Shown here one piece after another: positions 5,918-52,161 of a DNA stretch of 54,331 nucleotides. This DNA comes from Catajapyx aquilonaris (lineage: Eukaryota). The notes under the pieces are model-generated. The model was not told where the DNA came from and did no database searches. It worked only from the letters and a program-made list of their open reading frames with translations. Each line of letters opens with the position of its first letter. The first letter of the stretch is position 1. The translations under genes and the position numbers were made by a program. The stretch covers positions 1-54,331 of the forward strand of contig KZ538681.1 in NCBI GenBank assembly GCA_000934665.2. The letters run 5' to 3'.

Positions 5918-8191
5918 ATGTGGAAAGTTACAGTTCTGCTTGTTACTGGAGCCTTGGGGTGGTTCCCTGACCATCGTGAACCCGACGAATATCATCTTCT
6001 GGTTCGATTGGCCCAGGACATCCAGGATGACCCCGAGTATTCCAACTGCTCCCTGGTGGTGTCCAGGAGGGAGGAGAACACGAGCGTGTCTCTGGAGGAC
6101 CTGATGCGAACCCAGGGCCATTCCTACAGGCCCTCGGTCCTCCTCAACACCCACCATCCCACGGGAATCTCCATCCAGCCCTGGGAAGAGTACCCGGGAC
6201 TGACCAGGGAGGAAGAGCTCTACTCCTTCCGAACCATGCCCCCTGACCTCGTGTCCAGGTTCTGGCCAGGAGGAAGCTGCACCTTGAATCTCTTCGTGCT
6301 CGACTCCCCTGACCACCTCCCTCAACTGGTCCTTCACACAGCGGCCTTTGTCAGGGTGAGGAACCTCGACGACCCTTTCCTGATGCACTTCAAGAGCGGA
6401 GACCCCGAAGACATGCTGAAGGAGGAACCTGTCTCAGGGATCAAGTTCAAGGTCGCAACCGGGTAGGGACTTGCTTAGCCAGACTCTACCATTGTTGTTT
6501 CTTTTGGATAAAAATTTATGAATACTTCCAAAAATCTTTGTCCTCAGGTTCTCCCAAAAGGAAGGCTTGAAAATGCAAACCGTGTGTCACTCGTGCAGTG
6601 ATGGGGGACAGCCTTCATCCATGCCCTTGGATGGGTACCCAAGAGGAAAGGATTTGTACCCAGACACGGCCAGGTCATTCAATGGACGGGAAAACTGTTT
6701 CATCTCATACGATGACGACAATGACCTTGCCTCCGCTCGTAAAGTTCTTCGTAAACATGGTCACAGCGTTTTGACAGCTCAAGACAATTCACTTCTGGCA
6801 CTTGAAGATTATCTGGGCACTCGTACCACCACACAAATGGCTGAGCCATACAAGAATACTTTGGACTTTCAACTTTCAAATGGGACGTGGATAGGAGCCG
6901 CTCAAATCATTCTCTCTGGAAAGTGCCAGTATGGATTCGTATTCTTTCCGTCATCTGACATTATTCGCTACATACACATAGCTCACAACTTATTTCCTTT
7001 TTATCTATCGTTCGTAACCACCTTACCTGCGGTTATGCACACAAGATGGACAGTGTTCGTCGAACCCCTCAGCTGGCAAAGTTGGCTGGGACTGTTCGTG
7101 TCCATCTTCGCCTGCTCTCTTGTCCTCGCTTTTCTTCTGAAAAGAGGGTCCGGCCACAAGAACAGTATCATGTACCCGATGGCCACATTATTCCGGATTA
7201 TTTTGGAGCAACCCAATGAGCTTCCGGATTTCACAGGAGTGAGGACCTGCATTGGGGCCTTCTGGATATTGGCCTTGGTGCTGGCCTGTGGATACAGGAG
7301 CAAGATGGTGGAGGTCATGCTCCTGCCAGAGATAGAGAAACTTCCCGACACACTGGATGAGCTGCATCTGTCCGGATTCAAAGGGATCATGTCTTACCCG
7401 AGCAGGCTCGTCCTCGATCAGGTGATCTGTTCATTGATGAAGTAATACATTGGAAATTTAAACCAATACATTTCTTCACTTTCCAGATGGCGACGCAGAC
7501 AAATCATTTGAACCACGTGCACCTATTCAACGGGTCGGAGACAATAGTTTCCCAGCATTCTTGCATAGAGGAAGTGCAGCATACTCCAGGACGGGCATGC
7601 ATCCTTTACCAATTCTTCCTGTGGAGAGTGATCGGAAACTTCTACACGCCAAGTGGAGAAATGAAGGTGCGTGTGATAGACACAGAGGAATACGGCTTAT
7701 ATTCTTCAATTGGAATGTCACGTTCAAGCGTCTTCAACGAAGCATTCAGTGATTTCATTGACCGCCTGCTGCAGTCTGCACTCCACTCTTTCTGGTACGC
7801 CAATGAGCTGCATCACAGATTTACATTTGCTGTCAAGAATAGCCCGTATTACGAGATGGAACAGGAAGGGGGTCCCGATATGTTGCACTTGGAAAATGTG
7901 CAGATAGTGTTCATATTCTGGGGAACATTCTTGGGTTTTGCTTTCACCACCCTTCTTGCTGAAATTGCTTCAGCAAAAAGAGATTCCCAACAGAAGAAAG
8001 ATCAAACCGATAAGATGGTGACGATCTGCGCCTCCAGGAGAAGACAGCTTCGCTTCGTCGAGAAAAATGATCCGGAATCGCAAGAGACTGGCAGAGAGTA
8101 TGGAAACGTGGCATCTCATCAAGTTCAACCATCTCCTAAACCGTTGCCCATCGAGACCAAATCTGAAATGAGATATCCATATTTACCGTAG
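5918..8191 (+). CDS. Divergent ionotropic receptor (IR, variant iGluR), 3 exons: 5918-6462, 6548-7421, 7487-8191 (707 aa)
   Basis: Signal-peptide-like start (MWKVTVLLVTGALG), S1 motif NGTWIG, pre-M1 PLSWQSWL, M3 FWILALVLACGYRSKMVEVMLLP, DTLDEL, M4 LENVQIVF...LLAEI. GT-AG introns with consistent phases (2, 0). Confidence 0.9.
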
Positions 8192-22292: not shown

Positions 22293-25200
22293 ATGTCCAA
22301 GTTCTACGCTGCTTGTCTGGCCTCGTTCCTGCTCAGCCTACTTCACACCGGTCAGTACTCGCCTCTTTTAAATACAGAAAAAAACATATAGTTGACAGCA
22401 TGTTGCATGAAAAGTGCAGCATCCCTCTGAATAATGCAGTGTTATGAACTAAGAAGGTGGTCAACTATGCACTTAACGGATGATTTTATTTTATTTTTAA
22501 ATTCAGCGGACAGCCTCTGGTGCTACCGGTGTGTCGGGACGCACCCTGGATGTGGGGACGACTTCGACTGGCGCTGGTACTGGAGCTGGTACTGCCCGGA
22601 GGCAGACGACAAGTGTGTTAAGCTCATTGAGAGGAAAGATGGTGAGAAAATGTGTCAAATTATGTAGTAAGATCATACTACCATCTTTTGCAGTTAATTC
22701 GTCAGGGATCAGGCATTTATTAGTATAAATTATTATTTATTATTGTAATTTATTAGCTATTATTGTCATTTATTAGTTAGTTATTAGTCTTATTACTGTC
22801 ATCTATTAATCAGTTATTGTCATTATTACTGTCATCTATTAATCAGTTATTGTCATTATTACTGTCATCTATTAATCAGTTATTGTCATTATTACTGTCA
22901 TCTATTAATCAGTTATTGTCATTATTACTGTCATCTATTAATCAGTTATTGTCATTATTACTGTCATCTATTAATCAGTTATTGTCATTATTAGTTATTT
23001 ATTATTGTCATTATTTAGCAATTTTGTCATTATTAATTTATTATCGTCATGTACTTGCCCAAACCCAGAATAATTCGCTCACCCTGATATTTCCCAGTTG
23101 AGAATATGGAAATGACGAAATATAAATTAATTGCACATAAATAGGGTGTCATGAAGGTCGCCTACGTATAGAGTGGCATCTTGCCCACATGATGGCACAA
23201 AAATGCCTCCTCCAGCGCACATATGACCCAGGTCCCAGAGGTTTAAAAATGCGCAATGGGAGTCAGAAGTGTTCGTTCACAGCGCGCACTGCGTCAAATG
23301 AATTCGCTCAAGTACAATGACTCGATGCTCTGGCAAGTTCCTTTCGAGATAGCAGGCATCATTTCATGCTCGAACTCTGCGCTGGAAGGTTTGACCATGG
23401 TACGTGGAAGACCTCTCCAAAAAGACTTGCGAGTAGCCATACTGACAGCCCACAACGCGGGAAGGTCCGGCCGTGACATCGCACGGTCTTTTCAACTGCC
23501 ACAGAGAACTATTTCGGACCTGCTTCGGCGATATGCGCAGGCAGGGAGCTTGCTACCAAGACGTCGTACCGGACGTCCTAGGACAACGACACCCAGGGAG
23601 CTGAGAACATTGCGCCGATTGGTCAAGAAAGACCGCCGACAAAGCACGGCCGACGTGAATCAGGAATGGGCAAGGGTTACCGGGCAACCACGGTCGACAT
23701 CCACATGCAGGAGAAGGCTACATGAACTGGCGATGGATTTCTACAAGGTGAGGACAAGGTGCCACGTGCATAGATATAGTGTCACATCCGTAGTATTAAC
23801 CATTTTACTGTAGGCCAAGAAAAAACCGCTGCTCACCCATGCCCAAAAGAGGAAGGCATTGCTAAGGGCGAAGGAGAGGAGGGGGTGGAACAAGAGGATC
23901 TGGGCCACAATCATCTTCAGTGACGAGTCCTCTTTCCAAGTGATCCCGTCGGACACCCGGCGACACCATTCGCACGAAAAAGGACGCTTTCCATCCAGAC
24001 TGCCTGGAACGGACTGTGAAGCATGCAGCAAGTGTGATGGTGTGGGGCTGTATAGGGAGGAGTGGCACTGGAACCTTGCAAGTTGTGGAAGGGAAGATCA
24101 ACCAACACAAGTATCAGGCCGTCCTGAGGGACAGTCTCTTGCCATCGCTTCCAAAGCTGCGCCCGATGGGCAACTTCCTGTTCCAGCAAGATGGAGCTAC
24201 ATGCCACATCGCAAAAAAACGACCAAAACGTGGCTGGACGACAATGGTATTGGTACCCTGCCATGGCCTCCCAGCAGCCCCGACCTCAACCCTATCGAGA
24301 CAATATGGAAGAAAATGAAGCAGCATCTGAGGCACATGCGTCCCCGAACTGTCAAGTCACTGGTACAGAGACTTCAAGAAATATGGGATAGTGTGACCCC
24401 AGAGCAGTGTGCAGCTCTCTACGACAAGATGCCCCAACGTCTGGAGGCTGTTATTGCAGCTAAGGGGGATGTCACGCCTTATTGAGTGCCTTTATGTTAT
24501 CCATGTTCATTAAAATGCATAATTACTGTACCTGAGCGAATTCATTTGACGCAGCGCGCGCTGTGAGCGAACACTTCTGACTCCCATCGCGCATTTTTAA
24601 ACCTCTGTGACCTGGGTCATATGTGCGCTGGAGGAGGCATTTTTGTGCCATCGTGTGGGCAAGATGCCACTCTGTACATAGGCGACCTTCATGACACCCT
24701 ATTTATGTGCAATTAATTTATATTTCGTCATTTCCATATTCTCAACTGGGAAATATCAGGGTGAGCGAATTATTCTGGGTTTGGGCAAGTATTACTTATT
24801 AGTACTATTATAAATAATAAGGACTAGGTGTACATACTAGTGGGCTTGCCCCATTATGGGATTAATTTTGCAAAGTAATGAATGAATTATTTATCATTAC
24901 TAATTGCTGCTAATTAATTTCCAGCTGATGTGCTGATTACTCGGGATTGCCTGAGCAGCCTTCGAGTGCACAGGCATGACATTCCGGCTGATACGTACGA
25001 AGGGTGCCGTAATGCTTCCACTGATGTTCGTTTGGGTCATTATGTGTTTGACGACATTAAGGAATATGATGTCCGCAGGTTGGAATAATTTATCTTCTAA
25101 CTTGAGTGCAAATGTGGTCGGATTACTTGGCGGTTTTGTTGTAATTTTTTTCCTGTGTTTTGCAGAAATTATTACGACCAGGTGACCTGGTGCTTCTGCG

Positions 25201-28866: not shown

Positions 28867-29695
28867 ATGAAGCTGAAGTCACCTCTTTTGGATAACTGCT
28901 GTTGCTGCGTGTCCAACCGGACCGCTGCCATCACTTTTGCCTACTTGTCACTAGTGAGTATGAAGTGACTTCATGTGTACAGTAATATTAGGGTAATGAA
29001 ATGTGTTACATAATGTTATTGTGAACAGGTGGGATATTCACTCCTTATTGTTGGATGCTTGGTGGAAATGGGTTTCGGCATTACTTATCATCACATATAC
29101 TCATCTGTTCCGTCTTCTCGTGATAGAAACGATTTGTACGTCGGATTTGGTAAGTACTAATTTGATATCAATAACAGCCATTGCCTTTTGAAGTGTAATC
29201 CATGAATATGACCTAATTATTATTGCAGCGATGATTTTTGCTGGGGTTCCCACCTTCCTTGTGAGCATTTTGGGCATCGTCTTCACTGTGATTCTTATCA
29301 ACGGAATCTACAGGGTACGATTGATTACATAATATTATTCAGTAGGCCTACCCATATAAATATTTTAATTACTTTGCAGAGGAAGATGCATTACATAATC
29401 CCGTGGCTTACGATGCAAGCCTACGCGTGTGTGTATACATTCGGATTCATAATATGCGTTTTGATTGCCAACGTGACATTAATTAGTGCCATCGGAGTTC
29501 CACTGCTGATGATCCTACTTGGCGTGCAAATCTATTGCACTCTCGTTGTCTTCTCATTCTATCAGGTAAGACTCAAGTTGACATATTATCCAACAATTAC
29601 ATTAGCACAATATATTGTTGTTGCAGGAAACAAAAAAGGAATTCCGACATGTCGATCTGGAGTTTCAGCCCAACGCATTCAATGTTGAAATCTAA
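28867..29695 (+). CDS. 4-TM protein copy A: 28867-28953, 29029-29149, 29229-29314, 29380-29565, 29627-29695
   Basis: MKLKSPLLDNCCCCVSNRT, INGIYR, YIIPWL, QIYCTLVVFSFYQE; canonical introns; AATAAA at about 29742. Confidence 0.9.
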
Positions 29696-29936
29696 AATAT
29701 TCTCCATTAATATTTTGTTTTATATAAGAAAAAAGATTTCAAATAAAATGTTCTGCGTGATCCTGTACCTCTCGTTTTTTTTATATACCATAAACAGGAA
29801 CACCCTTGACACGAATTCCTGTTTTATTATTTTCTGGTATCCGGCCGGACCCGCATTGAAAAGAAACTTTCCGACGCCTATTTTGCGCAAAATATTTTCC
29901 ATCCCAGTCATACAGATCATCATCAAAGAGGACAAG

Positions 29937-30863
29937 ATGAAACTACGCTCACCAGTCCTAGAAAACTGCTGCTGTTGCATTTCCAACAGGACAGGAGCCC
30001 TCATTGTTGCCTATTTATCACTTGTGAGTGTCTCATATACCTTGATTGCATCAACATTGAAAATAATCGGACATTTAAAGTACATGCAACTGAACTGTTG
30101 CATTAATTACTGCACATTTTTTGACACATTTCAGGTAGGATACATATTATTAATCCCAACTTCTATCGGATGTGCTGGAACTGGGATTGGACTGTTTTAC
30201 ACGTCGCACTATTACGATGATTACCACAATGAACCATACCAGACCAGACCAGGCTGCCCTGATTGTTATCGATGCCACGATTATGACATCATTGATCAGT
30301 TCATATTTTCAGGTTGGTGTTTCTAGAGCGAAAACAGGTCATTTTTACTTTTAAAAAAATATATATTCAATGTTTCAGGTATGTTCGTCGGTGGAGTGTT
30401 GCTGTTGTTTTTCAGCATTTTGGGAGTCATATTTACTGCTATGATGATCAATGGAATTCATTCGGTATGCGCCTTTTCTTTCGATTATTTTTTTTTTTAA
30501 AGTAGCCTACACAGTATTATCTCAACCAATGTGCACTGCAGAACACACCTCATCTTATTGTACCCTGGATAACATATCAAGTGTTTGGAGCAGTTTCAAC
30601 ATTCGCTTCAGTTATAATTATACTTGTATTCAACGAGGCAACATTGAGCGCCGCAGGTGTTCCATTGCTCTTTCTGTTAATGGGATTTGAGATATACTGC
30701 ACACTGGCAGTGTTCTCCATTTATCAGGTATAAACTATTCATATTTAAAACACATCTCCCAACAGTAATTAACAGCCTTTTCTTTCAGGAGATGTACCGT
30801 GTGCCGCCTCCAATTCCGTTAGACTTCGAAGGTAATGCTGCCTTCGATTCTGAGTGTCGTTAA
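29937..30863 (+). CDS. 4-TM protein copy B: 29937-30023, 30135-30312, 30379-30464, 30542-30727, 30789-30863
   Basis: MKLRSPVLENCCCCISNRTG, long Cys/His/Tyr-rich loop 1, IVPWI, EIYCTLAVFSIYQE. Confidence 0.9.
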
Positions 30864-31239
30864 TTGCATCAATTGTAATTTCCTCATTACAATAAAAAAC
30901 AATTATATGCGTGTATGATTGTATGTTCTGCGAAATGACATATAATAGAAGTGGAAGGAATGGTCCGATTCGCAAAAATTCATTGATTATAGGACAGTCT
31001 GCTAATATTAGCGAAACGTGACTTAATTGCATGACACCGCCGAGAAACTTGCGTCAAAGCACGTAAAATTCATCAAAGACCTGTGTGGATCAATGTCAAG
31101 CTTGGTGGGACGTATTAATTGCATAGGTGTGTGCGCAGTCCAGCTCAATACTGTAACTACCACTAGAAATGTAAGGAAGGTGCTGCAATATTGTCCATAT
31201 AGTGAATCGTCCAGTCCTTTTTATTTTGTGTGCAAAAAA

Positions 31240-32130
31240 ATGCGGATCAAAATTCCTTCGCCAATATTGGACAGATGTTGTTTCTGCATAACGACTCAAA
31301 CTGGAGCTCTCTTGGTGACATATGCGTCGTTGGTGAGTTATGGACTTATTCAGCTATATATGAACATATAATATTTCTATTGGACACTATTGCAGGCTGG
31401 ATACACAGCCATTCTTCTAGCATCACTTCTGAACCTCGGAGTCGGACTTGCGTATTATTACACGAGTCATTACTATCCGGATGAAGTGACCTACTACCAA
31501 GGTCGAATATTTTCTGCCACAAGTAAGTGAAAAATATTTACTAGAAATCAGTTTCTATCCAAGCAAATGTTAAGAGAATCCCAAAAAAATGTTTCTTGAA
31601 AATGAATATGTGACGTGACTGAAATATTTCAGATATGATCTTTTCTGGAGGTCCCGCCATATTTCTGAGCATTTTAGGACTGTTGCTGACCGCATTGCTG
31701 CTAATGGGAATCCACAAGGTCAGCATTTATATTACCGCAAACAAAATTTAGTGATCTTAAAATTTTTCGACATTTTCAGAAGGAACCGATGTACATAATT
31801 CCATGGATAACTCTACACGTGAACAACTCGGTCACAACCTTCGGACTGATCGTTTGCGTCCTGCTAATTAATGTCCCGATAATTAGTGCAGTGGCAGTCC
31901 CGCTTCTTATCCTTTTACTCGCCACTCAGGTCTATTTCGTCTTGGTCATAGTCTCATTCTATCAGGTACGGTCTTAACTAATTATTAGCGCAATATTTTT
32001 TTAACTTTAAATTTTATACATCCGGCAGGAAATGACGACAGTGGTTCAATCCGTTCATACCATCACTAAATCGAGGCACAAATCGAAGAACAACAAGGAT
32101 TCCTTCGACAGTCTAACTATCTCACCATGA
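31240..32130 (+). CDS. 4-TM protein copy C: 31240-31332, 31396-31522, 31633-31718, 31780-31965, 32029-32130
   Basis: SPILDRCCFCITTQTG, GIHK, YIIPWI, QVYFVLVIVSFYQE. Confidence 0.9.
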
Positions 32131-32468
32131 AAATGTACGCACCCAAATAAAAACTACGTCAAGTAATAGACGTTGTATGTGTTTTGCATATCCTACATGT
32201 AAAAGTGTGCCTTGAATTTTTTGTATAGGTAAATAAGCTGTCGGGGTGTGTCAGCCCTGGCAATGTGCTACGCAGTAGTGGTTAACCTTGATCCTTTCAT
32301 GGCCTGAAACCGTGTAATAATAGCATTGCAGAGTTCATCCTCTGCACTTTTTTTTGTCAAACTGTATACAGAGTGTGTTGGCCGTAGCCGGCAAAGTAGT
32401 GACGTCACCACATCCTTTGTGCTGCTCATACTGCACATGAGTAGGTAAGAGAGTCTAGTCGTCTCAAA

Positions 32469-34034
32469 ATGAAGCTCCGTTCACCTCTATTGGAAAACTG
32501 TTGCTGTTGCATATCTAACAGGACTGGTGCTCTCATCTATGGATACCTGTCGCTGGTTAGTTAAGTGCAAATATTAATTCGTCTTTGGTGTGGAATTTAC
32601 ATTACGTTTTTTTTGGTCGTCTGTCAGGTTGGGTACATAGTGCTTCTGTTGGGATCCGTGGTCGACATGGGATTCGGAATTGGATTGTACTATTCCAACC
32701 AGGCCAGTGGAGAAAATCGGGGCCGGTCGGATTACATGTCTACGATGTTTACTTCAACATGTAAGTGCAATGACTGAATTTTGACTGAATTTATTATTGT
32801 ATCACTTTGTGCATGACTTCAGCCAGGTTTTTATTCTAGCGCTTGCCAAGTTGTTCATGTCTTTGCTGGGTGACTCAGACCACTCTCGAGAGAGATATAT
32901 ATGTCAAACTACTTGCACTTTGACCTTTCAAATAACGTGCGGCATATCGCGATAGCTGGTCCTGTTTAGCATGTGCACTTGTGCAATCCTGCGGGAAAAA
33001 GGCTAATTATTCGAACGTAAAGAAGGTGTTTTGAGTTACGGAAAAATTACTCGCATGACTTTAGAATGAAAAATTATTAAAATTGTGTTCCCGATCCATT
33101 AAATGATAAAGGAGAATATACATTTAATGGCATACTTTATTCAATAAATTTGATAACTGGGATTTAAATAGGTTCACACTCGCATTGACGAGAGTAATTT
33201 TAATGCTCCTTCCCAAGAACATGATTAATTTTATTATGATCTTTGTTAATAATTCGTGGTGCAGCCTTGCTTTTCAGCGGAGGTTTGACACTTTTGGTCA
33301 GCGTTTTGGCGATCGTGTTCACCGTCATGCTCATCAACGGAATCCACAAGGTATGTTCGTTTGGACTGGTTGCGAAATATTCGGTGGCTGCTTAAAACAT
33401 CTGTGCTCTATTTTTGGCAGAAATCGCCTCACTTCATGATTCCGTGGCTGACTCTCCAAATATACGCCTCTGTCTACACATTCGGCTGCATCGTTTGCAT
33501 CTTGGTTTTGAACGTCTACCTGCTAAGTGCCATCGGAGTTCCCCTTCTGGTGATACTTCTAGCGCTGGAAATATACACAACCATGGTCGTCTTCTCCTAT
33601 TATCAGGTACTATATTCCACTATCTGTATAGTTAAACACAATACCTGTTATCGATGGAAACAAACATTGGGGTCACGACACAGAAAACCGCAGAAAACCA
33701 CGAGCAATAGCCTTTTTAAAATGAGCTCACTCACATACAGTAATATTCTTTACAAAAAATTAATGGGACTGTGAGTAATTAATCTTTGTAACTAGAATAT
33801 TATTGTATGTGGGTGACATCTGGGTAATTACTCTGGAAGATGTTTACATCGAGACATTTTACTACATCATGATTTATGGGTGCTGAAGTTGACAATTTAT
33901 TTGCATTTCGCATATTTTTGTATAATGCACATTTTTAACGGCCAAAACTTTTGCTTTTTCAGGAATTGAACAGCTTTGTCCGTCACATGCCCCTGGATGA
34001 AGCTAGTAATGCCGGCTTTGCAGTTGACGCTTGA
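32469..34034 (+). CDS. 4-TM protein copy D: 32469-32555, 32628-32760, 33265-33350, 33421-33606, 33963-34034
   Basis: MKLRSPLLENCCCCISNRTG, INGIHK, FMIPWL, EIYTTMVVFSYYQE. Confidence 0.88.
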
Positions 34035-34980
34035 TGCCAGTCAGATCATGTATCCAGACAATAACTACTTGCATTTACAAGCTTCAATTCTTTTCACCTT
34101 TTATACAAGTCATTAATAATTATTCAGATTTGCCATGTACTGCGCAATAATTTTTATAACCACATTCAGTGTGTGAAACTGATGTTTGGACTGTATTCAG
34201 AGCGTGTTTGTATTATTCGTGAGAAATATAAAAAAATGACATGTTGAAGTTGACTTTTTAATCTTCCTAATTAATCACACAATCGAGCAATTAAGCAGGA
34301 ATAAAAATAGACTTGTGCTATCTGGTGACATTAATGGCCGGGACTTTGGACCTGTAACAAAAGGCTTGCTTTGCGATATAACCAGGAAAACTCGGCAGAA
34401 AGTGTAGCATGGTTTGCATATTATATACTGTGCAAGCCTTTGTCATAAACATATTCGGTGTCAGGTAATGTCACAGCTCAGCAGCTTTTATGCTGATGGG
34501 CCAACAATGCTGATACGAACATAAAATTGCACTGAAGTACATTATTTTACCTATTGATGCTTTTTTCATGGAGAGTGACCTTCGTAAATCCGGAACGTAA
34601 ATCCGGATTACTGTGTGCGCAACTCCTACACATATCGATCCTCTCTACCCTCAATAAACCCTCCGCCATTATTCCCTCTGGAGCTCTCCATAAATCCTCT
34701 TCTATAAATCCTCATAAATATTCAGCCTGCATGCGTATATCCGGTCTAAGCTTTCCAGTGTTGTTGTGAACATGGTTCTGATCAGGATGGTGCTCGCCCC
34801 TGGTCGCGCCCATGGTCCTAGCTAGCTCCAGACAAGCTGGGCAATAAGTGAAACGGCATCAGGAGGTAAGCTGGACAATATTCATTCATATTTTTGAATA
34901 ATATTGCAGAATGATCAAAGATTTTTACCGATTTTAAAGTAATGCTTTACGTTATAGGAAAATTTGGAGACAAAATCAAG

Positions 34981-35871
34981 ATGGAGGACCAGGAGTTCCT
35001 CATGCTTATGAAAAAGAAGCTGTCGAGTCACGTCCAGAAATATTTGCTCGCTTGTGGATTTGACAAACCCGAGTCTTTCCTTGGCTTGAATTTTGCCGGA
35101 CCTGATGATTTCATAAGTCAAGTTGAGCAATACATGAGAGAAAATTCAGACGTGCTTGTCGAGGACGAGTACTCTGCCAGGGAAATGTACGGCCCGTACT
35201 GGAAAAAGCCCGCAGCTTTCAAAGTCTCACCTGGCCATCGCTCTCAAATAATCGCATTTGCTAAGGAAATAGAAAGCATAATTTCACTGGGTCACTCTCA
35301 AGGAATTTCCTCTAAGGTACCAATAAAATGATTTGAATATTACCAGTAATATTAAACTAAATAATAATTTTATTTCCAGCCAGAATTCCAGTCTCAAAGA
35401 AGCTTCAGCAATGACGAACGGACTTCAGACGTTGTGTACAATACAGATGTTCCTTCAGGCTCTCCAAAAAATGCGGCTAGTTTCATGACTAAAGAGATGC
35501 ACAAGAAGATACTGGAGAAGACATTGGCGGCATGGTTGGCAGCCAACAAAGAAAGGATGGAAGATTGTTACTCGGGCCGATTTGCAACAATCGACGACTT
35601 TGGAGTTTCGGTCACAGATAACGCGAACAAAATGTCATCAACCGTCTATTGCGGCCTGTGCTCCAAATCAGTCAATCTGTTCCTTGGTCCCAGTGGCAAG
35701 AGCTGGATCACATCTAATTTTCAAAGACACGTAAGACGCATGCACTTCAAAAAAGACTCTCCTTCCAAAAATTACGATCAACCTGATCTATCATTTGTGA
35801 AGCAAGAATGTCCCGAAACTGCGAATATGGACGTGAAAAATTGCATACAAAATGAGGTAAAATATTTGTAA
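34981..35871 (+). CDS. Transposon-derived-like protein with an N-terminal helical domain and a C-terminal BED-like zinc finger; exons 34981-35316, 35380-35871 (probable 5'UTR intron 34866-34957)
   Basis: Open spliced frame across a phase-0 63-nt intron; CGLC...WITSNFQRHVRRMH zinc-finger motif; upstream gag|GTAAGC donor and tag| acceptor. Confidence 0.7.
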
Positions 35872-36128
35872 TAATATGTGTGTAATAAATTAAGGTATGA
35901 TCGTGCTGATTTCTCCTTTAAATATTCCATACGTGACCTCTACCGTATAGGTAAATTGGCCATGTCCTTCGCATGTGTATAAAACATCTGACGGCGACAA
36001 TATTCCTGGAAACCATGGAACGCGTGAAACGCAAAGCCCCATTTTTGATTTGTTTGTTTTTTATTGCTCCCTTCCACTTGAAAGTCCAAGGTTGCACGCA
36101 AAATTTCAGAGCGCAGTCTCGTCCAGCC

Positions 36129-36713
36129 ATGTTCGGTATGTACAAAAAGGATGATGTACCGGTGGAGTCATACCCTCCGTGGACGACATACGACGGGTCG
36201 CTGACAAGGTCTGCTCGTTTGTGGCTGTACGAGTTCGACCAAGCATGTGCACTTCGAGGCATACCGAGCGACGACAGGATGGTGCACATCCCAGAGGTAC
36301 TGAAGGACCGAGCGTACCTGTGGTACGTGCATCGTGCCAGGACCAAAGGCGAGTTCAAACACTGGTCCACATTCTGCTCGGAGTTGATCGTCAGTTTCGA
36401 GACGCCCAACTACAACCTGTCCCTTCGACAAACGCTGTCCAGTTTGAAGCAGAGGTCATCCCTGAACAAGTATGCGTCCGAGTTCTTGAGGTTGGCATTG
36501 GAAGTGCAAGGGATTGACGAGAAGGACAAGGTGCAGTACTTTACTGAAGGTCTGAAGTCCAGGACCAGGACTGAGGTGATATACAGGGAGCCTTCGACCT
36601 TGGAGGAAGCGATTGAGGTCGCGGTCAAGTTTGAGGCGTCGCCATTTGGACGCGGTTACAAACGCATCAATCTCAAGAAGAAGATGGCGGCCTTTACTGA
36701 CAGAACTCAATAA
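36129..36713 (+). CDS. Stand-alone Ty3/gypsy Gag capsid-domain protein (Arc-like), 194 aa
   Basis: YDG...A..WL..F..AC, LKDRAYLWY, WSTFCSEL..SF, L.SLKQ..S..KY.SEF..LA, YFTEGL...V.YREP.TLEEA..VA..FE; gccATG context; no CCHC knuckle, pol or LTRs nearby. Confidence 0.85.
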   Translation: MFGMYKKDDVPVESYPPWTTYDGSLTRSARLWLYEFDQACALRGIPSDDRMVHIPEVLKDRAYLWYVHRARTKGEFKHWSTFCSELIVSFETPNYNLSLRQTLSSLKQRSSLNKYASEFLRLALEVQGIDEKDKVQYFTEGLKSRTRTEVIYREPSTLEEAIEVAVKFEASPFGRGYKRINLKKKMAAFTDRTQ

Positions 36714-38051
36714 CTTATGTCTCATATGAATACACATGGAAGTTGAAGTGGCTTGTCATTTTATTATTTTTGGCATGTTCGACAACAATGCCAGGTCGTC
36801 AATAAGTTGTTGTTTTTTTTGCAGGTTGTTGCTATAATAACAAGTTCGGGTCGATATTATTTTGTAAAAATAGTTTGCAAGAATCTGACTACATTTTTCA
36901 TCAAAGTACGTGCAATTGCGAAATTGCGAAAATGTGCCACTGAATGTTGCGATTTTGATATTTTTGAATTACTATGGAGACGTGCCAAAATGCATTTTAT
37001 ACGTTTGTAAAAATTCCGACCTTTAGTCACCTCTGCGAGATTTGATGTAATTTTAGAATTTTGCTGCAATATTTCCCCAGCCTACGCTCGCGAAAAGTGC
37101 ACGCGACCATCGTTGATTAGTTCATTAAAATTGTAAATGAGGCCAAATCTTTTTATTATATCTACAGAGCGTGTCCCAGATCAGGCAATAAAATATTCGC
37201 AAAAAAATAGATATTTGTATCCTGGCTTGTCAATGCAATCCAATGCCAATTTTTTTTATAAATGTAGAAATCGCAACTTCATATTCGTATTATTGAAATT
37301 CGACCAAACGTGTTAGGCTAATGTTATTATTATTACCAACAACATCTCTTCCATCTAATTTTATTACACATGTTGTATTACAGATACATACATTCGGTAT
37401 TACCTGTAAGTGCATTTCACAGGGTATACATTCACAAGTTATATTCCGTCACAGGCTGCATTACTTTCACAAGAAAATGTGGCGATAAATTACTACTTAT
37501 TAGAAACAATACTTATACGAGCACATACATCACGTCGTTTACCAACACCTTTGATGTATATAGGGTATTTTAAACATTTGAAACGACATATTTTCCACAA
37601 TGCAATGCAATGGAGCAGTCGATCGTCACAATACCATTTGCTTGATTGGATTTAAATTAGACTCAAAGCAGTAACTTGTATTTGATCCTTCCGTCTGACT
37701 AGTGTGAAGTATTGATGAAGCAGCATTTATAGATAATTAAGTGATGATTGATTATTGTTTTTTGCGGCCTTGATAATATTGCGGAAACAATTTCGCGAAT
37801 TTCAAAATAATACTTGTCGTCTGTTATTCTATTAGACTAGAAAAGTGAAGCTGTTTTCTCTATATAACATGTCCTTTTGGATTAATACTTAAATTAATAT
37901 ATTTTACACTTAAAAATTAATTACAAATAGCAGCTTTCAAAAATGTACTTTCGCAGCCTTCTGCTGATGGATATTAAATCGGCCTGCTCATTTATATACT
38001 AATATAATCCATAAAATATACAGGGTGTTTTATAATAAGTTCCTCGCACTT

Positions 38052-39836
38052 CTAGGAAAGTTTGAGTTTACGACAACACTTCTCCTTCAGCGTCCTGACC
38101 ACACACGCTCCAATAAACTCGCAAATAAAAGCAACAGCAGACACAAAAACGCCGACAACTGCAAATGTAACCGTCTCCTTCATTTGGTTCAACGTGATGC
38201 TCCTCGGACCCCCTTCAAACAGAGCCATCTTCCCAGATTTGTACCACTTAACCCGCTCTTCCTCTCTCTTCTTCTGCCTTCCCATAATCGCTTTGAAATG
38301 CTGAAGTCCTGATTGCCAATATAAGAGCACACCACGGTTCAGGGACTCGTGGATGACCGAGTGTAAACGGGTGCATATCCCGCCCATTAGGATGGGCAGA
38401 TCACAGGTCACGATATGAAGTTGATCTTGATGATACTGGTTGTTAGGATCTTTCAAAAACTCCAAAGGTGTTTCTTGCACGAGACATGCGTGCTTTTCCT
38501 TCAGAGCCCTTGGAATACAGGTGTCCATGAATGGCTTTAACTCCGGATCACCTATTTCAACCTTGGCAGCTATTTCTTGCTGGACAGGACTGTTGGTCAC
38601 ATTTACGAAGGAATCAAAGTACCATTTTTTGGAGGATGACCAGGTGTACCCCATGTCTATCAGGTCTTTCAAGGTGTCCACGTTCTTCACAGGCGGATGG
38701 ATCATCAATTCCACTAGTTTGGATGAATATGCTGTGCAGATCACGATACAAAATAATAAGTAGGTCCCGAAGAACAATGCTGCTGTACCAGTGAAGGTGG
38801 ACTTAACACTTCGCCCAAAAATTGGTGGCAATGTTTTTTGAGTTAAAATATCTAACCAGGATAAATTCTTGACACCCGACACCTTATTCACGCACAAAAT
38901 AAAAGTGGTCGATGTAACATACGTTGCAAACAGACTGATCCAGACTATTCGAGGAAATGGCAACAAAATCTGTTCCCATGTTACGATTGGCTCGTGTCTC
39001 TTTGTTATAATTGCCATCATTTCCATTCGGTATGGTTGAGTAAACCTTGAGGTTATACTTCCTATTGCCACACGCTCACAGAAGCCGTAGTCCCCATGAA
39101 AAGCCTTCGTTGCCTCTATTACAGTGTCATAATTCAGATATTGGCTTACTATTTCATCCACAGTATCATCGTACATGCACACTTTAATTTTCCGACCATG
39201 TAAGTCTCTAGTTGTGTCCGGAAAGAGCTGACCATTGAAAGATGTCACGTTCTGCAACTCTGTGACTGAGTATTGACCATTGTTGCAGAAGAAGCAAGGC
39301 TGTAGAAGTCTGCAAGTCAGCTGGCCATTGACGCGTTTTAATCTGTCGATTCCTAGAGTGTGCTTGACCTTGAGTTGTTCTTCACCAATACACTGATCAA
39401 TGTTGCCTTCTCTCGCATAAAGGACTATAAAATTACGTGACATCTTCCAGTTCATCAGAGCTCGAAAGAAAGGATCGTGCAAGTACGTGTGCATGGTCAT
39501 ATACAAAATGACAACCTTGCACTGACCTGACACCTGAGGCACAAACTCCTTGCTCTTCACCACTGAATCGGTGTAGTTATTAATCGAAGATATGACTACA
39601 GTGTTTTTCACACTTCTGGTCAGTTTCATTAAACTCGTACTGTCCAACCCCCAATCTTCGTAATATATTGCAACGGAACATGATGCCAACAGCTCGTTTT
39701 CTACTATCCTGGACACCGCCTCGGATAAAAGATCTTCGTCTGTCTCTATCACAGGTGTTATACTCACTCTTCCATGTGTGCAGCCTGATGTGATGATAAG
39801 CCAACAACACAACGTGATGCAAACAGTCACTCTCAT
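38052..39836 (-). CDS. Intronless divergent ionotropic receptor (594 aa)
   Basis: Signal peptide, LFPD..RDLHGR, FTQPY, PF...VW, M3 IVICTAYSSKLVELMIHP, DTLKDL, QSGL, M4 ...FICE. Confidence 0.9.
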   Translation of the reverse strand: MRVTVCITLCCWLIITSGCTHGRVSITPVIETDEDLLSEAVSRIVENELLASCSVAIYYEDWGLDSTSLMKLTRSVKNTVVISSINNYTDSVVKSKEFVPQVSGQCKVVILYMTMHTYLHDPFFRALMNWKMSRNFIVLYAREGNIDQCIGEEQLKVKHTLGIDRLKRVNGQLTCRLLQPCFFCNNGQYSVTELQNVTSFNGQLFPDTTRDLHGRKIKVCMYDDTVDEIVSQYLNYDTVIEATKAFHGDYGFCERVAIGSITSRFTQPYRMEMMAIITKRHEPIVTWEQILLPFPRIVWISLFATYVTSTTFILCVNKVSGVKNLSWLDILTQKTLPPIFGRSVKSTFTGTAALFFGTYLLFCIVICTAYSSKLVELMIHPPVKNVDTLKDLIDMGYTWSSSKKWYFDSFVNVTNSPVQQEIAAKVEIGDPELKPFMDTCIPRALKEKHACLVQETPLEFLKDPNNQYHQDQLHIVTCDLPILMGGICTRLHSVIHESLNRGVLLYWQSGLQHFKAIMGRQKKREEERVKWYKSGKMALFEGGPRSITLNQMKETVTFAVVGVFVSAVAFICEFIGACVVRTLKEKCCRKLKLS

Positions 39837-40555
39837 TGCTGATGCTGATGATGGGCCTTTTTAAATTACTAACAAATGTTTTCTTATAATCTTACTGACT
39901 GTGGATTACTATACAGTACGTACGTATAGTCTCTAATATTCAAAGCACGAAAATAATAGAAAAATATGCTTAAAGTCGACATGTCTCTCACAATAATGTG
40001 GCCTGTAATCTTTCCGAGATATATATTTTGTACTTCCACAACAAGGCACAATAGCACTTAACTGAATGAAATATTGACAATCTCAACATGTTGACAGCTT
40101 AGGGCGTGCACCAGTGAAATATTGATCACAGTCTGTACCCGCATTGTTAGACTGATAACCGGTTCTCTTTTTTTTCCTTTTTGGCCCCTATCATATCATG
40201 GTGATGACAACGACTTTGCTTTGTCATGACAAAGAACGCGGCAAATGCTCATGAAGACTAGTCTATCATAAGATTGCTAATAAACAGAGACTGAGGAGAA
40301 TGCAGTTTAATCGCATCTTCATTATATTTTGCATAATTGTATAATCAAAAGCCTCCCCCTGCGATTAAAGCAACAAAAAACACGATATAAACGATAGGCG
40401 ATGATGTTACCCCCTTCTCAAATGACACCAACCCTGTCCGCACAATATTATCGCCGAAGACAGAGATGCGACCATTATTGTCCTGTTTGGTCCTGTGGAG
40501 AAAGCTGTGTCGACCACACTGCTTGCAATTCTATTTCTGCACACTTTTCGCCAAA

Positions 40556-41603
40556 ATGAAACTCCGTTCTCCTCTTCTGCCAAACTGCTGCTGCTGCATC
40601 TCCAACCGCACTGGAGCTGTTATCTTCGGAATACTCTGTTTGGTACGGTAATATTCATGTCATTTTACTTTGTAATACAGGCAGAAATTGCATGCTAGTA
40701 ATGTAAGGAATTTAGCCAATAATGCATATGAAAAAGACAGTTTTATACCCGTTTCATCCCCATTAACAGTGCTCATTACAACTCTGCTTGTCGTTACAGA
40801 TATCGTACACGATCCTTCTCCTGGGTTCCATAGCTCTGACTGCCATTGGACTGCACGGCCGGTACAACATTCCCATTATTAGTACTTCCATCGAACATGC
40901 TCAAGCTCTCCAGAAACTCTACATGTCCATCGGTATGCAATACACGTACAATACTCAGCATCACACTGTTTGCATGTTATTTTTTTCAGAGATGATATTC
41001 TTCGGAGTTCCTTCTTCCTTCATGAGCGTGATGGGCATCATCTACACAGCAATGTTGTACAGTGGTGTGCAAAGGGTAAGTGTACAGATTTCGCTTTAAT
41101 ATTGCATAGTTTGCTGGGAAATGAATGATATTTTTTTAACGATTCTTTCGACTTTCAGAAATCTCCAAATTATCTCATCCCGTGGTTGGCCATTCACATC
41201 ATGATATCAGTCGGTACTCTAGGAATGCTGCTGGGGGTCCTGATGATCAACATCGCTCTTGTGAACTACATCGCCGTTCCACTGGGGCTTGTACTTCTGG
41301 GACTGGAGATTTATAGCGTCATGGTCATTTTTTCTCATTATCAGGTACATGACCTTATTAATTTCTAACCCCCATCATACGAGTTGGAAACTCTAGATAA
41401 ATAAAATTTCTAATTGGAAATTATTCATGATTGAATTATTTCATTCACACTATACTGTACAAGCATTATTTGCATGTCAGAAATTTTATGCATGTAGATG
41501 TTTCAGCGTAATTATTATTACGTGACGATTAACTCTGCAATTTTTCCAGGATATGACCAGTTTGGTGCCTCACGTTCATCTGGATGAAGTCAACCTGGCG
41601 TAA
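40556..41603 (+). CDS. 4-TM protein copy E: 40556-40642, 40800-40932, 40990-41075, 41159-41344, 41550-41603
   Basis: MKLRSPLLPNCCCCISNRTG, YLIPWL, EIYSVMVIFSHYQD; same exon phases as copies A-D; AATAAA at about 41652. Confidence 0.9.
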
Positions 41604-41941
41604 AATATTTACCAGACGAAATTTCATTGTTCACTTGTAAGTATTAAGAGCAATAAAACGCAATGATTTTTTGTCGGTACACAATGATCGGAGTACTCCA
41701 ATCTCTCATTGCTCACCTTCTAACGTCTAACCCTTCACGTGTCCGACTCGATCTCGGTAAAACAATGTTATTCTACTTGTCAATGCCAAAAAAAACTTAT
41801 TTCAGAAAGCTGACCTTATTATCCTAATGATTTCCTTGATTTACCTAGTAAGTACCGGTAACTACAAGCAACCTAGTTGCTGTGTTACATTGAGAGTAGG
41901 TTTCTGCACAGTAAATGCACATTATTCAAAACCTAATTGGA

Positions 41942-41943
<2 letters not shown>

Positions 41944-41985
<42 letters not shown>
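41944..41985. repeat. (AG)n microsatellite
   Basis: Pure AG run. Confidence 0.95.
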
Positions 41986-41987
<2 letters not shown>

Positions 41988-42248
41988 GCCTGCTGATTGT
42001 GTTTTGATCAATGTCAATTTCATTTGTCGAATGTGTTGGCCGTCAACGTGCACCGTCAACAAATATTTGCGAAATGTCGCCCCTAACCAATTACGCTGAT
42101 GGCATTTGGCTGTAGCCGAGCATGTAAACATCTGCTTACCTGTCAAGTGTTCTCTTGGAAACATCGCAGTCGCATATGTATATACCAGTGCGTGTGCTTT
42201 GTACAGGTGACTTGTCCAGCTCAGCAGTTGCTGAAAATTAAAGTAACA

Positions 42249-44075
42249 ATGGCCGTGACCGCTGCTTCAATTGTGTTGTGCCTCATCGTCATCATGGCAG
42301 GGCGGAACTTTGGGCAAGTTATAGTCACATCCGAACATGACGAAGAGACAGATGGGGCCCTTTTGGCCGAAGCAGTGTCCAGGATGATGACAGAGAGCCA
42401 ACAGTTGGAATCATGCTCTCTTGCTATATTCTACGACGGCCCAGAGCTAGACAGCGGATTGCAGAAATTGTCCGCAAATGTTAGCAACCCTGTACTTATT
42501 TTCTCGCTTCACAACTATCCAGAGTCAGTGGACAGAAAGGCGTTTGTGTCCCAGATGTCAGGACAATGCTTCACCGTCCTGTTTCACGCTGATTTCGACA
42601 CATACCTTTACAATCCGTTCTTTCGAGCCATGAAGGAAGGGAAGATGAGCCGCGACTTTTCAATCATCCATGCCAAAGGTGACAACCTGGACGAAATAAT
42701 TGGCACGGAGCACATCAAAATTAAGTTTCTGCTTGGGATAGACAGACTAAAACGAATCAAGGGCCAGCTGACCTGCCGACTGCTGCAGCCGTGTTTCTTC
42801 TGCAACAAAGGTCAATACTCACTCACAGAGTTGCAGAACGTGACCTCCTTCGATGGCCAGCTCTTTCCGGACACAACAAGAGATTTCAACGGACGAGAAA
42901 TCAAAGTGTGCATGCACGATTGGTGGATCAATTTATTCCTGGAGCAATACTTGCATTACTCTACCTACTGGTTACACAAAGACTCGTACTTGGGTGATTA
43001 CACTTTTTGCGAAAGGGCCAGACTATCCCTCCAGGAATTGAGCTTCACTCAACCATACCGCATGGAAAATATAGTCATTGTAACAAAGAGGCACGAACCA
43101 TCCATCACATGGAAGCAACTTTTGTCGCCTTTTCCTGGCATAGTATGGATCGGCATGTTTGCAACTCTGATTGTAGCGACCACTTTCAACCTGTGTTTGG
43201 CGAAGATGGATTCAAGCCCAAACATTCGCGCATCTTGGATTGATATGCTGACAGAAAGAATACTACCGCCCATTTTTGGACAAGGAGTTACCTCGACTGT
43301 CAGCGGTGCCGCAGCCTTGTTCTTCGGCATTTACTTATTCTTTTGCATCGTGATCTGCACAGCCTATTCTTCCAAGCTAGTGGAATTGCTGATCCATCCT
43401 CCTGTGAAGAACGTGGACACCTTGAAAGACCTGATAGACATGGGGTACAGATGGTCAGCTAAGCAGCAATGGTATTTCGACACCTTCGCCAATGTCAGCA
43501 ATCCGGTGCTGAAAGAAATCGTGTCAAAAGTCGAGATCGACAATGAGCCATCCAGAGTTGACCTCAACACCTTTCTGGATCTGTGCATCTCTAGAGCACT
43601 GGAGGACAAGTACGCCTGTCTTGTGCAACAGCGTCCATTTGCTATGGTGAACGATGACGACGACGCGTATCACAGGGATCAGCTTCACATCGTTGTTTCA
43701 GACCTTCCTGTCATCATGGGCGGAATTGCGGCGAAGCTGAATTCGGTCATACTTGAGTCGCTCAACCGCGGCGTTTTGCTGTACTGGCAGACTGGGGTCA
43801 GGAACTACCACCAGGACATACGAATGGAGCTGAAGAAAGGAATTGACGCCACTGCCAGGTACAAGTTTGCTGGTAAGACGGGAATATTACCGGATGGGAC
43901 GGCAAAGCCTTTGTCCCTAAACCAAATTAAGACGCCGTTTTTGCTTGCACTCGTTGGATTGGCCTTTGCTGCCACTGTGTTCGTTACAGAGGTTGTTAAA
44001 GCGGCCATTGTTAACTGTGCTCGCCACGTTCAATGGAATAAATCTAAACGCTATTGCTGCAAGCGTAATCAATGA
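42249..44075 (+). CDS. Intronless divergent ionotropic receptor (608 aa), paralog of 38052-39836
   Basis: Signal peptide from ATG 42249; shares QLTCRLLQPCFFCN and IVICTAYSSKLVEL.IHPPVKNVDTLKDLIDMGY with the minus-strand IR. Confidence 0.9.
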   Translation: MAVTAASIVLCLIVIMAGRNFGQVIVTSEHDEETDGALLAEAVSRMMTESQQLESCSLAIFYDGPELDSGLQKLSANVSNPVLIFSLHNYPESVDRKAFVSQMSGQCFTVLFHADFDTYLYNPFFRAMKEGKMSRDFSIIHAKGDNLDEIIGTEHIKIKFLLGIDRLKRIKGQLTCRLLQPCFFCNKGQYSLTELQNVTSFDGQLFPDTTRDFNGREIKVCMHDWWINLFLEQYLHYSTYWLHKDSYLGDYTFCERARLSLQELSFTQPYRMENIVIVTKRHEPSITWKQLLSPFPGIVWIGMFATLIVATTFNLCLAKMDSSPNIRASWIDMLTERILPPIFGQGVTSTVSGAAALFFGIYLFFCIVICTAYSSKLVELLIHPPVKNVDTLKDLIDMGYRWSAKQQWYFDTFANVSNPVLKEIVSKVEIDNEPSRVDLNTFLDLCISRALEDKYACLVQQRPFAMVNDDDDAYHRDQLHIVVSDLPVIMGGIAAKLNSVILESLNRGVLLYWQTGVRNYHQDIRMELKKGIDATARYKFAGKTGILPDGTAKPLSLNQIKTPFLLALVGLAFAATVFVTEVVKAAIVNCARHVQWNKSKRYCCKRNQ

Positions 44076-50175: not shown

Positions 50176-52161
50176 ATGGGACGTGCAATGTTGCTGGTTC
50201 TCCTTCTGTGCGTGGGTGAAGGTGACTCTCGGTTGACCAGGAAGAAGGTTGGGATGGAGTGGTCATCGGAGGAGGAGGCCTCTCTGGTGGCATCCCTGGT
50301 GCTCATGGCCCATGACCCGAACTGCCTCCTGGTGCTGGCCACGGGTCAACCCCAGTCCTCCTTTTATGACCATCAGATGACCCGTCTCCTCCTCAAGAGG
50401 GCCCACTCTTCATCTCCTGTTCTGTCCATCCGTTGGTCCCCATCCATGCCCCAGTCCACCACCAACACACCTGAGTACTGGTTCTCTTGGCTGGAGAGAC
50501 CCATGGCCAGGCACCTCCACAACTGCGGGCTGTTCCTCTTGGCCCTGCCCCGGGTCCAGTACCTCAGGCCCTTCCTCCGACACCTGGCATCTATAGTCCG
50601 GATCAAGACCAACAGGGACAGGTTCATCTTCTGGACACCATCTGGACCATCATCATCCAGTGATGATGCTGTGGTGAGGGACGCCCTCTTGGATCCGGAC
50701 GCAGAGAGGATGCTCTTCTCCCTCGGGATGATCTACCACAACCACACCAGGAGACTCTCTCTGCTCAGTAACTGTCACTTCTGCCATCACGGAGGTCATC
50801 CGGCTGTGGTCAACACAGGTTCGTACGGTGCTGGTCAGGAACGGACTCCGGAAGAGTTGTTCCCGGATTATTCTAGGAATCTCCACAATAGGTTTCTGAA
50901 CGGTAGTGGTCCTTTTCAGATAGACAAAAGTGAAGTAAAGTATTTTCTAGACAACAACATGCCCATGTTTCCCCAAATATCTATTATGACGCCACTCAGT
51001 GAAATTTTAAATTTTAACTGGAAATTAGAAGCTTTCGATTTGAGTGACGGGCAACTTCCAGATGTTCGACTCCCCGACGGTAACTACACAGGTCCTACCG
51101 GTCTAATTGTTAAACGAGAAGCAGTGTTTGCAGTAACAGTGTTAAGAGATGAAATGTCATTTGTAACGGATGTCGTTCATCCGCATTCATTATCTGCACT
51201 TACATTCATAACTAGAGCGTCCAGAATTAGTTATTCTTGGAAATCAATTACTCAACCATTCACCCCTGAAATGTGGGCACTTATCTTTGTGGCAAGTGTA
51301 ATCAGCAGTGCAATACTCTGCATGATTCTGAAAGGTAGTTCTACCATAAGCCCGCCCTTCTCCACTCGTCCTCCTCCTTCTCTTTTACTCTATTCATTGA
51401 GATACCTATTTTCCACCCTGATCGAAGAAAACCCAAACCAGGTCCCGACCAGTCAACCAGCCCGAATATTCATCGCTTTCTGGTGGGCATTTTCCCTGGT
51501 CATAATCTGTGGTTACGAGGCTCTTTACTTTGCGTTTTTAGCAAGCCCTGAATTGGAGGAATTGCCCACATATTTTAGTGACAACGTGAAATGGCCGAAG
51601 TGGACTTGGGGAACTGTTGAATTCATGAAACCGTTCCTGGGCAGTGTGCTGGAGTCTTTTGATCCTGCAGTCGCCAAAGACATGATAGACCACATCGATT
51701 TGAACTCGTGCGTTTTGGAAACAATAAATTCCGATCACTCGTGCATTTCCGTGTATGATGCTCTAACTGCAGGCAGCTTTCAATTCGCAGACAAGGCTGG
51801 GAATCTGCCAACAAGGTATGCTGCCGAAAATGATATGATGCTTGTAGGAGCTTCAATTACCGAAAAGTACAGCCTAGTGTCACCAATATTTAGTAGAACC
51901 GTTAATTACATAAGGGATTCGGGTATTTTAGACAAATTAGCAATGATGTTTGACCATGCATGTTTGGCGATGGGAGTCAAGGCTTCCCGTAAAAACAATA
52001 TATTGTACGAGAGATCGATGGCATTGAATTTTATGCAGATGAGTGGACCTCTGTATTTTCTATCTGTTTGCTCGTGGTTTCTCGGGACTTTAGTTTTTCT
52101 GGCGGAGATCTTTTCCCATGGAACGCGCTTCCGTCATACGATATTTGCAAATGCACCTTAG
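50176..52161 (+). CDS. Intronless divergent ionotropic receptor (661 aa)
   Basis: Signal peptide, CHFC, LFPDY.RNLHNR, DGNYTG, QPFTPEMW, RIFIAFWWAFSLVIICGY, DSGIL, M4 ...FLAEI. Confidence 0.9.
   Translation: MGRAMLLVLLLCVGEGDSRLTRKKVGMEWSSEEEASLVASLVLMAHDPNCLLVLATGQPQSSFYDHQMTRLLLKRAHSSSPVLSIRWSPSMPQSTTNTPEYWFSWLERPMARHLHNCGLFLLALPRVQYLRPFLRHLASIVRIKTNRDRFIFWTPSGPSSSSDDAVVRDALLDPDAERMLFSLGMIYHNHTRRLSLLSNCHFCHHGGHPAVVNTGSYGAGQERTPEELFPDYSRNLHNRFLNGSGPFQIDKSEVKYFLDNNMPMFPQISIMTPLSEILNFNWKLEAFDLSDGQLPDVRLPDGNYTGPTGLIVKREAVFAVTVLRDEMSFVTDVVHPHSLSALTFITRASRISYSWKSITQPFTPEMWALIFVASVISSAILCMILKGSSTISPPFSTRPPPSLLLYSLRYLFSTLIEENPNQVPTSQPARIFIAFWWAFSLVIICGYEALYFAFLASPELEELPTYFSDNVKWPKWTWGTVEFMKPFLGSVLESFDPAVAKDMIDHIDLNSCVLETINSDHSCISVYDALTAGSFQFADKAGNLPTRYAAENDMMLVGASITEKYSLVSPIFSRTVNYIRDSGILDKLAMMFDHACLAMGVKASRKNNILYERSMALNFMQMSGPLYFLSVCSWFLGTLVFLAEIFSHGTRFRHTIFANAP

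Follow-up and report, generated by a model that had tools for sequence, protein, structure and literature searches.

dArc2 is a capsid-only, two-lobed protein derived from a Ty3/gypsy Gag; it has no zinc knuckle, and its chain counts 193 aa. Ty1 p22 and Drt2, which are truncated-Gag restriction factors of yeast, and RTL8, an antagonist of PEG10, are Gag capsid pieces without nucleocapsid or pol that are encoded apart from an active element; they are Ty1/copia-derived or mammalian, and p22 and Drt2 consist of the C-lobe only. The inhibitory action of truncated Gags on related elements is described as experimental in PMC10951436 and PMC11684626. According to PMC10516033, dArc is known to form capsids, to load RNA, to be expressed and to be conserved, and dArc1 is an independent domestication. 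The same source ties bona fide domestication of mammalian metaviral capsid genes to placental retention and purifying selection, and gives a dN/dS of 0.03 for ARC.

Here we describe a capsid ORF that stands alone in a window (the whole stretch of DNA analyzed, 54,331 nucleotides) that looks like gene-dense invertebrate DNA. Whereas the properties of dArc have been established, the product of this ORF, P0001, is known from sequence alone. P0001 resembles dArc2 in being capsid-only, two-lobed, derived from a Ty3/gypsy Gag and devoid of a zinc knuckle, and with 194 aa it also has the dArc2-like size that the sequence-only reading had given it. However, its identity to dArc1 and dArc2 is 12–17% in structural alignment, and only the family profile, not P0001 alone, reaches the dArc chains by sequence. 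P0001 falls in the same sequence family as the Gags of Ty3/gypsy elements (Metaviridae), from which it differs by being single copy and by lacking their N-terminal segment, their linker and CCHC knuckle, pol and an LTR. It shares with p22, Drt2 and RTL8 the state of a separate capsid piece, but no related active element at least 80% alike is present among the contigs listed for it. The ancestral domain is the same as that of mammalian ARC, PNMA, RTL/SIRH and PEG10 and, as in the domesticated-gag class (Arc/dArc/PNMA/RTL), the ORF is intact and single copy and the other element parts are gone.

The capsid ORF, its family and its predicted fold

The ORF and its parts, with the lobes delimited on the predicted structure, are as follows.

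36129..36713, + strand, capsid-only Gag ORF; ATG 36129, TAA 36711–36713; 194 aa and stop (protein P0001)
36165..36404, + strand, predicted capsid N-lobe, residues about 13–92; short strand and four helices
36405..36647, + strand, predicted capsid C-lobe, residues about 93–173; five helices
36648..36710, + strand, basic tail, modelled with low confidence (pLDDT 51–77), at the position of the relatives' linker and CCHC knuckle

As first read, the 194-aa frame is uninterrupted from ATG to TAA; it lies in a stop-to-stop opening of 252 codons (35955–36713), and the predicted mass of P0001 is 22.7 kDa. The assignment to Ty3/gypsy capsids with both lobes also stands. Pfam Ty3_capsid (PF19259) matches residues 48–170 with an E value of 4.8e-13 and 49.4 bits (cut-off 29.1), Retrotrans_gag (PF03732) matches with 5.1e-12 and 46.3 bits (cut-off 24.1), and the predicted fold is two-lobed. 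The third positions are GC-rich, as claimed: GC1/2/3 of the ORF is 0.47/0.41/0.69, and GC3 of the neighboring coding ORFs is 0.44–0.61. GC content in 120-nt windows reaches 0.51–0.57 in the ORF, against 0.34 directly 3' of the stop and 0.42 5' of the start. This GC island roughly coincides with the ORF, its borders lying within about 60 nt of start and stop.

A HMMER search of P0001 against 1.84 billion representative proteins returned 2401 relatives at E ≤ 1e-3, of which 268 had E ≤ 1e-10 and none had E ≤ 1e-30. The best 150 of these 2401 are Gag or Gag-Pol proteins with 27–40% identity to P0001, including 13 polyproteins longer than 900 aa. The closest relative among the matches listed, P0002 (258 aa), has an E value of 2.4e-25 and 38% identity. 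P0001 had no match in word-indexed protein searches (near and longer lengths), and a metagenome scan gave 180 pattern matches, none of them confirmed. Since no relative much above 38% identity appeared in the protein and metagenome searches, no ortholog of P0001 was found there.

Our alignment has 103 rows, P0001 and 102 relatives taken from P0002–P0120; the 17 others of these 119, mostly long polyproteins and short fragments, were dropped by hand, and the selection is non-systematic. Retrotrans_gag is found in 103 of the 103 rows, Ty3_capsid in 102, zf-CCHC in 37 and a gag-type aspartic protease in 10, with P0001 among the rows without a zf-CCHC match. In 14 columns of this alignment conservation reaches 90% or more, and P0001 has the conserved residue in each of them (14/14).

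With P0001 alone as input, the structure model was poor (pLDDT 46), and an alignment-based model was used instead (pLDDT 90.4, pTM 0.75; predicted structure). The model has nine helices in two lobes, four in residues 29–90 and five in residues 95–170. In a Foldseek search with this model the top rows were all Arc, dArc, Ty3, PNMA2 or PEG10 capsids, with TM-scores on the target of 0.71 (dArc2 capsid chain) and 0.68 (Ty3). About 150–157 residues of the model can be superposed on the capsid chains of dArc2, dArc1 and Ty3, so that at the level of predicted structure these three chains match over their whole length. The values of the structural comparison are given below, with the residues superposed in last place.

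dArc2 capsid: 10.0; 3.5; 157/164
dArc1 capsid: 9.8; 3.4; 156/164
Ty3 capsid: 10.2; 4.0; 150/155
PNMA2 capsid: 8.7; 4.3; 160/180

A homodimer prediction for P0001 (score 0.00, mark 0.32) has no bearing either way on its assembly.

At the sequence level, phmmer of P0001 against the PDB gave 11 sequences with E ≤ 10, none of which is an Arc or dArc chain. The family profile, run against PDB chains, reached Ty3 Gag at 8.1e-20, dArc1 at 3.4e-14, dArc2 at 7.7e-09, Arc at 1.5e-06 and PEG10 at 2e-05. As the direct phmmer search misses the Arc chains and TE-type Gags reach 2.4e-25, P0001 is, judged by these comparisons, a member of the Arc/dArc/Ty3 capsid superfamily but no ortholog of Arc or dArc, so that a co-option, if there was one, would be an independent event. 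Of the independent domestication proposed from the sequence, the solitary capsid, its dArc2-like size and shape and its independence from Arc and dArc hold, and the domestication itself is a plausible candidate.

Missing element parts, copy number and age

P0001 is short at both ends. Only 16 residues precede its PxFxG motif, against about 25–50 in the relatives examined, and the 24 residues that follow its C-lobe (171–194) are basic (pI 11.1). In the relatives examined, the C-lobe is followed by a linker of about 50 residues and a CxxCxxxGHxxxxC knuckle. No zf-CCHC match was found in P0001 or in any frame downstream, in agreement with the earlier description of a basic tail in place of a CCHC nucleocapsid, and the six frames of the whole window gave no piece resembling a knuckle at E < 0.6.

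When 13 Gag-Pol polyproteins were compared with the whole window by tblastn, all 13 matched 36126–36665 only and none matched elsewhere at E ≤ 1e-3; this search detected no protease, RT, RNase H or integrase adjoining the capsid ORF. The ORF was also the sole match of the family HMM among 1104 six-frame pieces of the window (next-best E 0.65). No LTR-like flanking direct repeat longer than 80 nt was present in 30000–42000, where the sole 80-nt repeat family is a repeated exon of neighboring paralogous genes. The sequence-only reading was thus right, for the tblastn search and for the repeat search of 30000–42000, that protease, RT, integrase and LTR are missing nearby. It had also reported mostly broken TE remnants in the window; one broken Tc1/mariner-like remnant was found, and no others.

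23247–24485, + strand, Tc1/mariner-type transposase remnant; HTH and DDE_3 matches, in-frame stop 23811–23813

Copy number was assessed on contigs of three DNA runs (X1, X2 and X4) from one sample, placed on 33500–39500 at a likeness of at least 80%; this sample may be the window's own source, which would make the runs non-independent, and the record filter drops some contigs. In bins 35510–37519 the depth equals exactly that of a single spanning contig (36.6 in X1, 31.6 in X2 and 22 in X4), which is also the depth of the flanks. No second copy of the capsid ORF at least 80% alike is present among the contigs listed for X1, X2 and X4 in these bins. Within the contigs of one sample, the ORF is single copy at a likeness of at least 80%. 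No recently active parent family is therefore visible. Sister copies, if any, are less than 80% alike and, if neutral, each would have diverged from their shared ancestor by at least about 10%.

We simulated neutral decay of the frame in 5000 trials, assuming AT-biased substitutions and one indel per ten substitutions. An intact frame remained in 32/5000 trials at 10% divergence, in 198/5000 at 5% and in 1318/5000 at 2%. We infer that this simulation favors selection on the capsid ORF only in the case of an old insertion. It does not apply to a lone insertion that is young (e.g., horizontally acquired) and was trimmed by deletions, and a young copy would be just as likely to show high GC3 and to retain the conserved residues.

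Neighboring genes and possible starts of the capsid ORF

Upstream of the capsid ORF lies a multi-exon gene, here called gene U, which the sequence-only reading overlooked and which opens other gene models for the ORF. Gene U and the candidate signals around the ORF are listed here.

34911..35871, + strand, gene U; exons 34911–35316 and 35380–35871, about 288 aa
35884..35889, + strand, AATAAA, likely poly(A) signal of gene U, 13 nt 3' of its stop
35951..35956, + strand, candidate donor GTAAAT (TAG/GTAAA, GT at 35951), motif
35978..35984, + strand, TATAAAA, candidate own promoter element of the capsid ORF from a motif scan, 145 nt 5' of the ATG
36015..36017, + strand, alternative in-frame start (ACCATGG), which would add 38 aa (232-aa form)
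36104..36109, + strand, candidate acceptor TTTCAG behind a T-rich tract, motif 20 nt 5' of the capsid ATG
37124..37192, + strand, first canonical poly(A) signals 3' of the capsid ORF (ATTAAA 37124, AATAAA 37187), candidate

The intron of gene U (35317–35379) is 63 nt long, in phase 0 and bounded by GT..AG, and the gene ends with its stop at 35869–35871, about 260 nt 5' of the capsid ATG. Its product has a weak BED-like Cys2His2 motif (Pfam zf-BED E 0.15, below threshold), and a homolog search (exon 35380–35856; longer lengths) found no relatives of gene U. Contig depth is slightly raised in bins 35108–35509 (41.7 vs 36.6 in X1), a hint of a partial paralog elsewhere. We considered and rejected the first coding exon of gene U as a degenerate second gag N-lobe: its 13 BLASTP matches all have E ≥ 0.16 and the family HMM did not match.

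The capsid ATG at 36129 had been credited with a good Kozak context. With GCCATGT (–3 G and +4 T), its context is no more than fair, and the in-frame ATG at 36015 has a better one; no further ATG occurs in any frame between the two. The 38-aa extension (36015–36128) would begin with a basic stretch followed by a hydrophobic one, signal-peptide-like in look. It overlaps a T-rich tract that resembles the polypyrimidine tract of an intron, and its GC3 is about 0.47 vs 0.69 for the capsid ORF. The donor at 35951 and the tttcag at 36109 that had been pointed out are both present as motifs, and a second CAG acceptor-like motif ends at 36116. Judging by these motifs, gene U upstream, the TATA box and the in-frame upstream ATG allow starts other than 36129. 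On the 3' side, the first 410 nt after the capsid stop are free of canonical poly(A) signals in a motif scan.

Several single-exon receptor-like ORFs are present in the window.

38052..39860, – strand, receptor-like ORF, single-exon, 602 aa, variant ionotropic-receptor-like, convergent with the capsid ORF
42087–44075, + strand, receptor-like ORF, single-exon, weaker Lig_chan match
6522–7445, receptor-like ORF, single-exon, weaker Lig_chan match
50176–52161, receptor-like ORF, single-exon, Lig_chan 3.8e-10

The ORF at 38052–39860 lies 1339 nt from the capsid stop, where an iGluR-family receptor gene had been placed at about 1.3 kb. Its Lig_chan match has an E value of 0.12 only; it is 52% identical to the ORF at 42087–44075 and weakly related to that at 50176–52161. 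The closeness of the capsid ORF to receptor genes is positional, with no support beyond position. Several diverged DNA-run contigs fall on the receptor gene at 38525–39328 (– strand), with 6–14 differences per roughly 60–110 nt, which points to close paralogs or alleles of it elsewhere in the genome.

Pfam places further genes in the window: DUF4728-like genes, a PAXNEB exon and a tetraspanin exon. The segments 29212–34206 and 38052–44075 look like tandem duplications of a unit made up of a DUF4728-like gene and a single-exon receptor-like gene, and gene U and the capsid ORF sit between two of these duplicated units. An 80-nt exon piece is repeated at 30652, 33531 and 41269. Run X5 has a 791-nt contig on 33500–34206 that ends at 34206 and skips 33603–33958, a segment with GT..AG ends. 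As this contig is a spliced form of the DUF4728-like gene (joint 33602 to 33959), run X5 is probably RNA. Its contigs leave gene U and the capsid ORF uncovered, a blank that has no bearing either way on expression.

Possible readings: co-option, relic or fusion with gene U

That the ORF is a co-opted stand-alone capsid gene kept by the host comes close to being probable. It would be all that survives of a Ty3/gypsy (Metaviridae) element inserted long ago, and the host would keep it as a single-copy gene. By analogy with the capsid proteins of Ty3, dArc1 and dArc2, P0001 may self-associate via its capsid lobes, and the basic tail, standing where the nucleocapsid would face the shell interior, would give loose RNA binding. 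Its transcript would begin either at a promoter of its own, with the TATAAAA at 35978, or farther 5', in which case an intron in the 5'UTR would end at 36109. As for what such a gene would do, a dArc2-like shell former is a tentative and somewhat unlikely answer, and an inhibitor of related retroelement assembly that acts as a truncated Gag is an unlikely one; we lean slightly toward the shell former, and the data do not separate the two. We regard as decidedly improbable the fuller proposal of a further independent invertebrate co-option of a gypsy capsid, dArc2-sized and with a basic tail for the knuckle, that forms shells around RNA. Under this proposal, a translation start at 36015 would supply a signal-peptide-like N-terminus that might route the shells.

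The ORF may well be, short of this being probable, a neutral relic: a fairly young truncated Ty3/gypsy gag whose LTRs, nucleocapsid and pol were deleted, which has no function and has not yet accumulated stops. Solitary gag ORFs are common as debris of LTR elements, and no ortholog was found for P0001 in the protein and metagenome searches. Both of its ends are short compared with the relatives (N-terminal segment of about 25–40 aa; linker and CCHC), as random deletion would give, and at 2% neutral divergence more than a quarter of the simulated frames (1318/5000) stayed intact. What argues against a relic is that no copy at least 80% alike, and thus no recently active parent, is visible among the contigs listed, and that polyprotein tblastn, family HMM and repeat search found 0 element remnants outside the capsid ORF. 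The borders of the GC island also demand two deletions that framed the capsid domain and left a usable ATG and stop. A third, very unlikely reading joins gene U and the capsid ORF in one longer unit, with the capsid ORF as its final exon; this would yield a fusion of about 482 aa (BED-like finger and capsid) or, with the acceptor at 36109, a two-cistron RNA. The two lie on the same strand, and near the end of the last exon of U a donor-like GAG/GTAAAA stands at a codon boundary (35856/35857). A strong T-rich tract with TTTCAG precedes the capsid ATG by 20 nt, the 58 codons 5' of that ATG are free of stops in the capsid frame, and joining the donor to the CAG that ends at 36116 maintains the frame and gives the in-frame fusion. 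However, with the better acceptor, 36109, the capsid frame is lost and a stop follows at 36152–36154, and U has its own stop at 35869–35871, followed 13 nt later by AATAAA. In addition, GC3 of 36015–36128 (about 0.47) is unlike that of the capsid ORF (0.69), and none of the 150 best relatives is similar to the U exons (0/150; best BLASTP E 0.16).

If it is a relic, the capsid ORF is ordinary retrotransposon debris. If the co-opted, host-kept gene is the right reading and the ORF is under selection, it would be one more independent case beside the gypsy-derived animal capsid genes Arc, dArc, PNMA and RTL. Such a case, outside the fly and tetrapod lineages and pared down to two lobes and a basic tail, could reveal which Gag parts are needed for a host function, be it shell formation or element blocking. 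Should P0001 indeed build RNA-holding shells, an 'Arc' would have arisen by convergence for a third time, and nature would offer a minimal capsid for RNA transfer.
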